Virus record (IMG/VR): IMGVR_UViG_3300037418_002116
DNA from: a virus
Lineage: Duplodnaviria; Caudoviricetes
Length of the DNA stretch: 64,000 bases
Reading direction: 5' to 3' (one strand)
Shown here: piece after piece, positions 60,461 through 61,683 of the stretch
How positions within the stretch are numbered: position 1 is the stretch's first letter
Layout: each line of letters begins with the position of its first letter
Made by a program: the position numbers and the translations under genes
Notes under the pieces: generated by a model
The model's database searches: none
Seen by the model: only the letters and a program-made list of their open reading frames with translations
Told to the model about the DNA's origin: nothing

Positions 60461-60703
60461 TTAGTAGTCGATGTCAAACAATCTTTTCAAAGCTTTGGGT
60501 AAAAGTCGCTTTTTCTCTGTATATGGCTTAGTTTTGAAGCGTTTCATCTGGTCATAACGTTTGGCCAAGGCGATATCTTCATCCGAACCCTTTTTCAGAG
60601 CCATTTGTTTGGCGCATGAACGATAGAATTCATCCGTTTCGTCCCACGAATCCATGAGATAACGAGAACGAAAAATTTTAATATATTCACTTTCTGTGGC
60701 CAT
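60461..60703 (-). CDS. hypothetical protein
   Basis: 80 aa overlapping the MazG-like gene. Confidence 0.6.
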   Translation of the reverse strand: MATESEYIKIFRSRYLMDSWDETDEFYRSCAKQMALKKGSDEDIALAKRYDQMKRFKTKPYTEKKRLLPKALKRLFDIDY

Positions 60704-61073
60704 TCCTGAATGCTCTTTGCGTAGCCCTTGTCATAGCCATTAAGTCTTCCAAGGTGAGTTTGTATTTCCGTTTAGTATACGCTTCAATTGCCCCTAAAAG
60801 GTCGGAAAGCTCCACCAGTTCCATGACAGGATTGTCTTGCAACTTGGCATCCATAAACTCTTCATATTCTTCGGTAATTTTTGATGCCTTACCAAGCTCA
60901 CCCTTTTTGATTTCCGTGGTGTGATAGCCGCAATCGTATTCTTGCTTTACCATTCTCTCACCGGAGAAATCACTAATGACACGGAAACCCGGTTCAGGAG
61001 TGCCACAACCGGAGCATTTGCCGTCTATAAAGTGCTTACACTTTCCGTCGTCCAATTTATTTCGCTTTCTCAA
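60687..61073 (-). CDS. MazG/HisE-like all-alpha NTP pyrophosphatase with N-terminal Cys cluster
   Basis: GYHTTEIKKGELG..SKITEEYEEFMDA...MELVELSDLLGAI (EExxE...ExxD metal motif). Confidence 0.75.
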   Translation of the reverse strand: MRKRNKLDDGKCKHFIDGKCSGCGTPEPGFRVISDFSGERMVKQEYDCGYHTTEIKKGELGKASKITEEYEEFMDAKLQDNPVMELVELSDLLGAIEAYTKRKYKLTLEDLMAMTRATQRAFRNGHRK

Positions 61074-61683
61074 TATTTTTTAAAATTCTTGTCAACCTCG
61101 GAAGCGCAACACCGGTTCCATATATCCATGTCGCAAACGAACAAGAGCGCAACCCATAAGAGCCGATTTCGACTCCGCACAACTCGATATCCCATGAGTC
61201 ATCCGTGGTCCGGACGATCTTCAACATTTCTTCCGCTTCACGTCGATTATGGTAATTCAGGCTACCGGGAGATTTGGCCGGGCGAACCAATGCATTGTTC
61301 GTGTATTCCAGAAAGAAATTATAGGCGATTTTCATGAGTGGTTGAACGGCATCGACCGTCACGTCACCAAAATATATCAATTCATTTTTCATGAAATATT
61401 TTGTGTGATAGAGCCCGAAATTATCATCCCTCATGCATGGTGTGACTGCCTGATAGCGGCCCGGCAACAGAAAGCCTTTGTTGATAAGGTACAGGAACGA
61501 TTGTTCCGCCGAACCAACGAAATTCTTTTTCTTCCCGTTCTTGATCACTTCATGGGGATGGACACCATCTGGCTTGGTGATGTTCAAAATTTCATCCGGC
61601 ACCAGCCATGGAGCTTCGATTCGTGAAAATCCATGGTGTTCATAATAGGAAATCGAACCCGCCAGAATCGAGTAGTCTATCAT
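61057..61683 (-). CDS. class II aminoacyl-tRNA-synthetase-like catalytic core (SerRS-like), no tRNA-binding domain
   Basis: GFSRIEAPWL; VGSAEQSF; AVTPCMRDD; YFMKNEL; WDIEL..VEIGSYG; GTGVALPRL. Confidence 0.8.
   Translation of the reverse strand: MIDYSILAGSISYYEHHGFSRIEAPWLVPDEILNITKPDGVHPHEVIKNGKKKNFVGSAEQSFLYLINKGFLLPGRYQAVTPCMRDDNFGLYHTKYFMKNELIYFGDVTVDAVQPLMKIAYNFFLEYTNNALVRPAKSPGSLNYHNRREAEEMLKIVRTTDDSWDIELCGVEIGSYGLRSCSFATWIYGTGVALPRLTRILKNIEKAK

Follow-up and report, generated by a model that had tools for sequence, protein, structure and literature searches.

The gene pair and its start sites

The window analysed here is a stretch of 64,000 nucleotides of viral DNA (Caudoviricetes; IMG/VR record IMGVR_UViG_3300037418_002116) from a soil T4-like phage. 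It carries two adjacent genes on the minus strand, which we call gene A and gene B. Gene A (61057..61683) encodes a 208-aa minimal catalytic core of a class II aminoacyl-tRNA synthetase (aaRS), as judged from the list of open reading frames (ORFs), the match to phrog_4806 and the predicted structure. Gene B (60687..61055), defined by the ORF list and by its orthologue in the closest IMG/VR relative (locus L002, 76% identity in gene A), encodes a protein of 122 aa, or of 128 aa if a TTG at 61073 is taken as start. Its larger part (60687..60932, residues 48-128 of the 128-aa ORF) is a HisE/MazG-type all-alpha nucleoside triphosphate (NTP) pyrophosphohydrolase domain, and the remainder (60933..61055) is a Cys-rich N-terminal extension recognised in the family alignment. 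Core and partner form a module with hundreds of carriers among large phages, giant viruses and ultra-small microbes, in some of which the two are fused into a single protein. A megablast search of the locus against cultured phages gave no near relative.

Gene A heads a minus-strand unit. Its 5' leader (61684..61775, minus strand) is a divergent intergenic region, and the plus-strand structural genes begin at 61776. An AAGGA Shine-Dalgarno-like sequence is located 7-12 nt upstream of the gene A ATG, and the two weak sigma-70-like matches (9/12) on the minus strand of the leader are not above the shuffle expectation. According to the longest-ORF rule gene B starts at TTG 61073 and overlaps gene A by 17 nt, and an earlier reading made from the letters of the window (the sequence-only reading) had accordingly described the stop codon of gene A as overlapping the partner ORF. 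Because the L002 orthologue begins at the codon equivalent to TTG 61055, so that both proteins open with M/L-D-D-G-K-C, a spacing of one nucleotide (TAA-A-TTG) is more likely than the overlap, which is probably a product of the rule. The two genes are tightly coupled in both cases, and this part of the earlier description stands.

Gene A is a class II core without tRNA-binding elements

The class II signatures can be followed along the whole of gene A. Motif 1 reads R-I-E-x-P25-W and the TxE-like motif S58-x-E60-Q61, motif 2 reads T-P-C83-x-R85 ... H93 ... F97-x-K-x-E101 and is followed by E172-x-x-S175, and motif 3 reads G-T190-G-x-A-x-P-R196. The strings which the sequence-only reading had aligned by eye with seryl-tRNA synthetase (SerRS), namely GSAEQS (57-62), TPCMRDD (81-87), FMKNEL (97-102), WDIEL (164-168), EIGS (172-175) and GTGVALPR (189-196), are all present and fall on invariant columns in an alignment of 40 homologues with 46-79% identity to the window protein. 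This alignment has 34 invariant columns, including P25, S58, E60, Q61, T81, P82, C83, R85, H93, F97, K99, E101, L102, D165, E172, S175, T190, P195 and R196. The motif 1 proline (P25), the motif 2 arginine (R85) and the motif 3 arginine (R196), by which the class II superfamily is recognised, are thus all found.

In the PHROGs collection gene A matches phrog_4806 with an E-value of 1.2e-34, and a database search retrieved 488 homologues of 180-220 aa at E <= 1e-3, so that the resemblance is well beyond chance. No Pfam or NCBIfam model, including Pfam tRNA-synt_2b and NCBIfam serS, matches at threshold. Both genes of the pair are under purifying selection, because against L002 the nonsynonymous distance (dN) is far below the synonymous one (dS): dN is 0.17 and dS 1.5 for gene A, while for gene B dN is 0.18 and dS is saturated.

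The AlphaFold2 (AF2) model of gene A (pLDDT 92.3, pTM 0.88) shows the antiparallel beta-sheet catalytic fold of class II enzymes flanked by helices. A Foldseek search of the PDB with this model returned at least 500 matches, all of them class II aaRSs, with SerRS and pyrrolysyl-tRNA synthetase (PylRS) on top at probability 1.0. Structural alignment with VIA gave 69 chains at Z >= 8, the top 50 of which are all class II-type cores. The best was SerRS 7u2a (Z 18.5, rmsd 2.7 Å, 185 of 208 residues aligned), followed by HisZ and histidyl-tRNA synthetase (HisRS) at 15-17, PylRS at 15.0, SepRS at 14.8, Bll0957 at 14.5, AsnA at 12.9-13.7 and GenX at 12.8. Catalytic domains of SerRS, a class IIa enzyme (for example 7u2a, 1ser and 2dq0), reach Z 16-18.5 with ~183-185 of the 208 residues aligned, and methanogen SerRS 2cim (Z 13.1) and Bll0957 (3mey) score below the bacterial-type SerRSs, which have Z 16-18.5. 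The fold search therefore agrees with the class II assignment made from the letters. Comparing the gene A profile with solved structures yielded weak matches to AspRS, SerRS and PylRS (E 0.1-1.5), and hhalign of the family with a true full-length SerRS from the candidate phyla radiation (CPR) gave a probability of 84% and an E-value of 7.8e-6 over motifs 1-2, the true SerRS aligning from its residue 175 onward.

Gene A and SerRS share S/T-x-E-Q, T-P-C-x-R-x-E/D, H-x-x-x-F-x-K-x-E, Y/W-D-x-E...E-x-x-S and G-S/T-G-x-A-x-x-R. Unlike SerRS, however, the gene A protein begins at motif 1. It has neither the N-terminal coiled-coil arm (Seryl_tRNA_N), which in SerRS binds the long variable arm of the tRNA and whose absence had been correctly noticed in the sequence-only reading, nor any other tRNA-binding arm or anticodon domain. 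In addition, the family measures only 180-208 aa, the motif-2 loop is ~10 residues shorter than that of SerRS and a HisE-like partner is always present. Ten residues before the motif-3 arginine, where the serine-hydroxyl-binding threonine of SerRS would be located, gene A has an aromatic residue, W186.

A member-by-member Pfam scan of the 40 homologues found class IIb (LysRS/AspRS-like) in 25 (weak matches to PF00152), class IIc in 14 and class IIa in three (PF00587, E <= 0.05). Because these matches are mostly to class IIb and IIc, we take the term 'SerRS-like' of the sequence-only reading to describe ancestry and not specificity. In the sense of structure and of the hhalign result the term is justified, and we read gene A as a protein of SerRS ancestry with strong divergence, which we do not take as a sign of serine specificity. 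Gene A is not a canonical SerRS. It is not a HisZ either: HisZ lacks the catalytic arginines of aminoacylation, whereas gene A keeps R85 and R196.

Stand-alone class II cores without tRNA-binding domains are also known from Bll0957/Atu2573, EpmA/GenX, AsnA and HisZ, and these tRNA-independent paralogues are a precedent for the adenylation of a carboxylate and its transfer to a non-tRNA acceptor. At ~290-330 aa they are much larger than gene A. The Z scores of EpmA/GenX and AsnA are below those of SerRS, and yet the class IIb matches prevail among the family members. With ~180-208 residues the core is among the smallest natural class II cores that keep every catalytic signature, and its size is near that of engineered 'urzymes'.

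Gene B is a HisE-type domain with a Cys-rich extension

The last 80 residues of gene B match phrog_6408 with an E-value of 8.6e-31 (PHROGs). The Pfam model PRA-PH gives 15.4 bits, under its cut-off of 21.3, so that the HisE gathering score is missed. Within the family, PRA-PH is matched by 32 out of 37 sequences (E 8e-5 to 0.05) and MazG by one out of 37. By this measure gene B, which the earlier description had called MazG/HisE-like, is closer to HisE than to MazG proper.

The putative metal-site motif is E68-E69-x-x-E72-x-x-D75 ... E88-x-x-D91, and three basic residues, K57, K65 and R127, are kept in all 37 sequences of the alignment. Invariant in these sequences are Y50, H51, I55, G58, K65, E68, E69, E72, E88, D91, A95, T118, F122 and R127, and D75 occurs in 90% or more of them. 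The pattern corresponds to the predicted EExxE...ExxD metal site of all-alpha NTP pyrophosphatases, combined with basic residues that would suit a triphosphate.

In the AF2 model, which has a pLDDT of 94-98 over residues 50-120, the domain consists of three helices, not four, after the conserved segment G-Y50-H51...I-x-K-G. Foldseek places the HisE structures 2a7w and 1yvw on top (rmsd 1.1-1.7 Å over 55-57 columns) and MazG next. The HisE matches have probabilities of 0.99-1.0, with weak E-values of 0.35-0.5 because the domain is short. The gene B profile found one weak MazG match among solved structures (1vmg, E 0.08), and an additional repeat match was deemed spurious.

Gene B thus resembles HisE (PF01503) and small MazG-type enzymes (2a7w, 1yvw, 1vmg, MazZ) in its helical fold, its EExxE...ExxD pattern and its length of ~80-100 aa. 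HisE and MazZ, the latter from Z-genome phages, convert a triphosphate into a monophosphate which is substrate or product of a neighbouring pathway enzyme. Unlike HisE, gene B has the three helices with the G-Y-H...K-G segment, lacks a histidine-pathway context and always comes with a class II core, as its neighbour or within the same protein.

A further difference from HisE is the Cys-rich N-terminal extension of 40-70 residues, which in the 37-sequence alignment is seen in the window protein and in the L002 and L004 orthologues of this phage clade; most family members do not have it and start at G-Y-H. The window protein carries C-x-H-x5-C-x2-C, and the two orthologues CxxC...CxxC. The model of this region is of low confidence (pLDDT 52-75) with two short strands, and going by the Cys/His spacing only, the extension could possibly form a zinc knuckle or ribbon.

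Core and partner are obligately linked and repeatedly fused

To describe the pairing we used 71 loci, of which 64 were fetched from IMG/VR by the core alone and seven came from species-representative genomes. The partner is encoded on the same strand as the core in 71/71 loci, downstream of it in 56 and upstream in 15. In 56 of the 71 loci at most 60 nt separate the two genes, and only 6 loci have a gap of more than 300 nt. Eight loci, two from giant-virus bins and six from metagenome-assembled genomes of CPR and DPANN organisms, have the two fused into a single ORF. With the fused protein as query, ~100 additional fused clusters (260-318 aa) were retrieved; some come from CPR contigs of 835-934 kb, others from viral (giant-virus) contigs of 577-650 kb. 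The sequence-only reading had named a lack of linkage in other genomes as evidence against it, and in every other genome examined the two genes are linked.

Among 50,697 records of cultured phages the core occurs in 276 and the partner in 278, with near-identical genus counts. The carriers include phi92-like, phAPEC8-like and rV5-like coliphages, Acinetobacter T4-like phages used in therapy work, jumbo phages of Caulobacter and Brevundimonas, Microcystis phages and XacN1. In metagenomes the core forms more than 1,500 protein clusters. Pairwise protein distances of core and partner are correlated (Mantel r 0.58, reached in 0 of 999 permutations), to which shared ancestry contributes. A complex prediction for the core with partner residues 46-128, using both alignments, scored 0.00 against a mark of 0.32 and is counted neither way.

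As a side observation, locus L029 has two partner copies (5386-5625 and 5849-6088), 224 nt apart, downstream of a single core gene. Their protein sequences are identical in the alignment, which points either to a tandem duplication of recent date or to an artefact of the assembly.

Any other neighbour family is shared by 13 of 65 loci at most, and the ones seen most often (homing endonucleases, DNA and RNA ligases, NADAR, NadV and NatV) are what accessory regions typically contain. The annotated neighbours of the module include no carrier protein, HisG is not found among the conserved neighbours and no his genes (hisI/hisG) lie nearby. Other stand-alone class II paralogues have a carrier protein, EF-P or HisG as partner; gene A has none of these, and the NTP pyrophosphatase is its sole constant partner. 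We know of no other stand-alone class II core (HisZ, AsnA, EpmA, carrier-protein ligases) with an obligate NTP-pyrophosphatase partner, and the partner or feature by which each of these is defined is missing from the module.

One could suppose that the two genes do not work together, the core being a HisZ-like non-catalytic regulator or a decaying aaRS fragment that happens to stand beside an ordinary house-cleaning deoxynucleoside triphosphate pyrophosphatase. The structural scores of HisZ are indeed high (3rac Z 17.1, 3od1 15.8, 5m8h 15.6), and phages commonly encode MazG-like genes (PMC7824862). Nevertheless, the catalytic residues of gene A are all invariant, both genes are under selection, a hisG gene is absent nearby, and the linkage holds in every locus, in both orders, with eight fusions and almost equal numbers of cultured records. 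We consider this explanation extremely unlikely. Nor do the data suggest the separate 'nucleotide-clearing' role which the sequence-only reading had given to the partner: genes that are always paired, in either order and at times naturally fused, are more in keeping with two steps of a single reaction pathway.

Two intact active-site signatures, an obligate linkage with free gene order and repeated fusion are explained far more readily by one two-step enzyme than by the fragment of a synthetase next to a house-cleaning pyrophosphatase. The explanation we favour is that A and B are halves of one two-part enzyme system, which combines amino-acid adenylation with cleavage of an NTP between the alpha and beta phosphates and which serves an acceptor other than tRNA; we hold it to be about as likely right as wrong. 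Gene A would be a minimal SerRS-derived core, probably a homodimer, which most likely retains binding of ATP and of an alpha-amino acid (serine or a similar small residue) and would form an acyl-adenylate and pyrophosphate. Gene B would be a HisE-type enzyme that cuts the alpha-beta bond of a nucleoside-triphosphate-type molecule. Both would act in the same pathway, probably as a complex. The acceptor would not be a canonical tRNA, and a nucleotide or another small molecule seems most likely, because the core has no tRNA-binding element and only a short motif-2 loop and because enzymes of nucleotide metabolism are its neighbours in cells.

The activated amino acid might instead end up on a protein of phage or host, attached to a side chain or prosthetic group, as in ligases of the EpmA/GenX or carrier-ligase type; the sequence-only reading had named a protein among its possible acceptors. 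The fold resembles Bll0957 (3mey, Z 14.5) and GenX (3a5y, Z 12.8), but both score under SerRS, HisRS and PylRS. Moreover, apart from the HisE-like gene there is no conserved protein-coding neighbour and no carrier protein, and the obligate NTP pyrophosphatase would be left without a role. Protein modification is therefore very unlikely in our view.

Cellular fusions and the acceptor of the proposed two-part system

In two distinct CPR lineages and in DPANN archaea a radical S-adenosylmethionine (SAM) gene of 221-256 aa abuts or overlaps the fusion, on either side (L067 5469-7477; L070 5237-6804; L074 5001-6509; L078 and L080 4001-5487; also L069, L071 and L073). These proteins constitute one family with a CNAxCxFC cluster motif. 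Among the curated NCBIfam models they match MoaA, a tungsten-cofactor maturase, NrdG2 and viperin best, and several of these enzymes have nucleoside triphosphates as substrates. In the DPANN loci an AAA_28 kinase-like gene is located upstream of the fusion. Genes for ThyA, DHFR, NDK, NrdR and a nucleoside deoxyribosyltransferase are found near the cellular fusions. In one CPR locus ThyA, DHFR, NDK and, 2 kb away, a full-length SerRS lie within a few kb of the fusion, which is therefore not the housekeeping SerRS of that organism. Under the favoured explanation, the pathway would be extended in cellular lineages by the MoaA/viperin-like radical SAM enzyme and by a P-loop kinase.

In a more specific form of the favoured explanation A and B would join an amino acid to an NTP-derived molecule, and the partner would turn its triphosphate form into the monophosphate. 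We regard this version as distinctly unlikely. If it were true, there would be a new aminoacyl-nucleotide metabolite or modified-nucleotide precursor in large phages, giant viruses and CPR/DPANN cells, and the cellular viperin/MoaA-like radical SAM enzyme would work on the same nucleotide.

Several observations weigh against a two-part system with a non-tRNA acceptor. To our knowledge, the characterised truncated class II paralogues act on a protein, a carrier or ammonia or serve as regulator, and none acts on a free nucleotide. A tblastn search of the 50,697 phage records for the radical SAM family gave only 12 weak partial matches. Phages with the pair lack this partner, so that what is seen in cells may not apply to them. 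Finally, the module is often found in or beside tRNA arrays, and the operon of the window, with its two tRNA-Gln genes, a truncated HisRS (mini-HisRS) and tRNA-His, would suit an RNA-directed role equally well.

tRNA and RNA context

The minus-strand unit of the window runs from gene A through gene B, an 80-aa ORF (orf80), two tRNA-Gln genes (60278-60438), orf103, the mini-HisRS (59249-59896), orf111 and tRNA-His (58824-58898) to genes for NAD salvage. The distances given in the sequence-only reading hold: one of the tRNA-Gln genes (60365-60438) is 249 nt downstream of the partner stop, where about 250 bp to a tRNA cluster had been stated, and the mini-HisRS is about 0.8-1.2 kb away, where about 1 kb had been stated. 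The nearness to tRNA genes is real in the window but is not constant across loci. tRNA genes are found within 6 kb of the pair in 24 of 65 loci, including long arrays in which the pair is embedded (L026, L048, L049, L062 and L064), and none within 6 kb in the other 41. A constant tRNA partner for the module was considered and rejected, as the identities of the nearby tRNAs vary.

This context could be taken to mean that the target is the 3' end of a tRNA or tRNA-like RNA, of phage or host, which the core acylates or adenylates, while the HisE-like partner processes a triphosphate, for instance the 5'-ppp end of an RNA or an NTP needed for end repair. The module would then be a translation-support or tRNA-repair accessory of tRNA-rich phages. 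Besides the tRNA genes near more than a third of the loci and the shared unit of the window, RNA ligase genes near the pair in seven loci and genes for a D-aminoacyl-tRNA deacylase and Trm1 near the archaeal fusions fit such a role, and tRNA charging is known from isolated catalytic domains of PylRS type, which have a similar fold. The core, however, has no tRNA-binding module, and its motif-2 loop, the part of class II enzymes which touches the acceptor stem, is very short. The majority of loci have no tRNA nearby and those present have no fixed identity. Because Rfam, run at a permissive threshold over 58000-62500, matches only three tRNAs, there is no candidate for a tRNA-like acceptor RNA beside the genes. 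Furthermore, the conserved acidic face of gene B is ill-suited to RNA binding, and in large phages the tRNA regions collect accessory genes in general. All in all we regard an RNA-directed role as unlikely, although the tRNA-rich setting in phages, the window included, speaks in its favour.

Two kinds of unusual tRNA genes were observed in phages with the module. The window contains a tRNA-Cys (GCA, U73; 53446-53530, minus strand) with a long variable arm of class II type. At least five other, distinct IMG/VR contigs likewise have a long-arm tRNA-Cys of 84-88 nt, located 3-6 kb downstream of the module (L012/L013 12194-12277; L017 11230-11315; L020 8329-8414; L034/L035 12381-12468; L041 9854-9941), and L041 has both a long-arm and a normal tRNA-Cys. 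As it is found near the module in a subset of related T4-like contigs only, the recurrence probably reflects lineage synteny. In two related contigs ARAGORN reports a 'tRNA-Pyl', its label for an amber-reading anticodon (L005 11013-11087; L033 214-289), which may indicate stop-codon suppression or recoding in those phages.

NAD-related genes and a possible nucleotide signal

NAD-salvage genes (Nampt/NadV and NMNAT-Nudix/NatV) together with genes for NADAR-domain proteins occupy 53818-58384 of the window. They are found within a few kb of the module in six to seven IMG/VR loci, on soil or aquatic T4-like contigs, and at L079 (1-6210) the fused form of core and partner sits between such genes. 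This recurrence is likely to be shared synteny of an accessory region.

These counter-defence-type neighbours could suggest that the core makes a dinucleoside polyphosphate or another product of AMP transfer which the HisE-like enzyme trims or degrades, in order to manipulate stress signalling of the host or to counter nucleotide-based defence. Side reactions of class II aaRSs do yield Ap4A and Np4-capped RNA, and the NTP-pyrophosphatase signature of gene B would be in keeping with this. On the other side, an anti-bacterial-defence role makes little sense for fusions in CPR/DPANN cells and giant viruses, the NAD genes are present in only ~10% of the loci and look like lineage synteny, and the invariant S-x-E motif, which binds the amino group, favours a true amino-acid substrate. 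We therefore consider a nucleotide signal as the product decidedly improbable.

Annotation and significance of the module

Genes A and B are clear members of phrog_4806, labelled 'histidyl tRNA synthetase', and of phrog_6408, labelled as of unknown function. Public phage records name the core variously as 'histidyl tRNA synthetase', 'putative seryl-tRNA synthetase', 'putative tRNA synthetase' or 'RNA polymerase alpha CTD'. These names are automatic, and the protein has the domains of neither HisRS nor SerRS. The annotation as histidyl- or seryl-tRNA synthetase is almost certainly wrong, and it misleads claims of phage-encoded charging enzymes. One genome paper treats the core as a working SerRS (PMC8953757), and the pair is not mentioned in a survey of jumbo phages (PMC7824862). 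In a full-text literature search we found no functional study of the pair, and no assay in the papers found.

Identification of the substrate would add a new branch to class II enzyme chemistry and would explain why the module is retained in viruses and genome-reduced symbionts alike. As tractable E. coli phages carry it, the question is directly testable. The window adds a soil T4-like member, the Cys-rich extension of the partner and the corrected partner start, and it shows the module at the head of an operon with a second, unrelated truncated class II enzyme (the mini-HisRS) and three tRNAs.

Other genes of the unit

A common origin of gene A and the mini-HisRS was considered and rejected (BLASTP E 3.8; hhalign E 0.43), and by this comparison the mini-HisRS represents a class II family unrelated to gene A. 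The 80-aa ORF (60461-60703, minus strand) shares 17 nt with gene B, across the stop of the latter, and leaves 23 nt between its own end and the tRNA-Gln pair. It has no family match and a homologue in just one of the 64 IMG/VR loci, and for the latter reason we place it outside the conserved module. The longest ORF of the truncated HisRS (59249-60037, minus strand, 262 aa) overlaps the 103-aa ORF (59898-60209). Because the homology to HisRS begins near residue 48, the true start is probably an internal Met, which would give a protein of ~215 aa.

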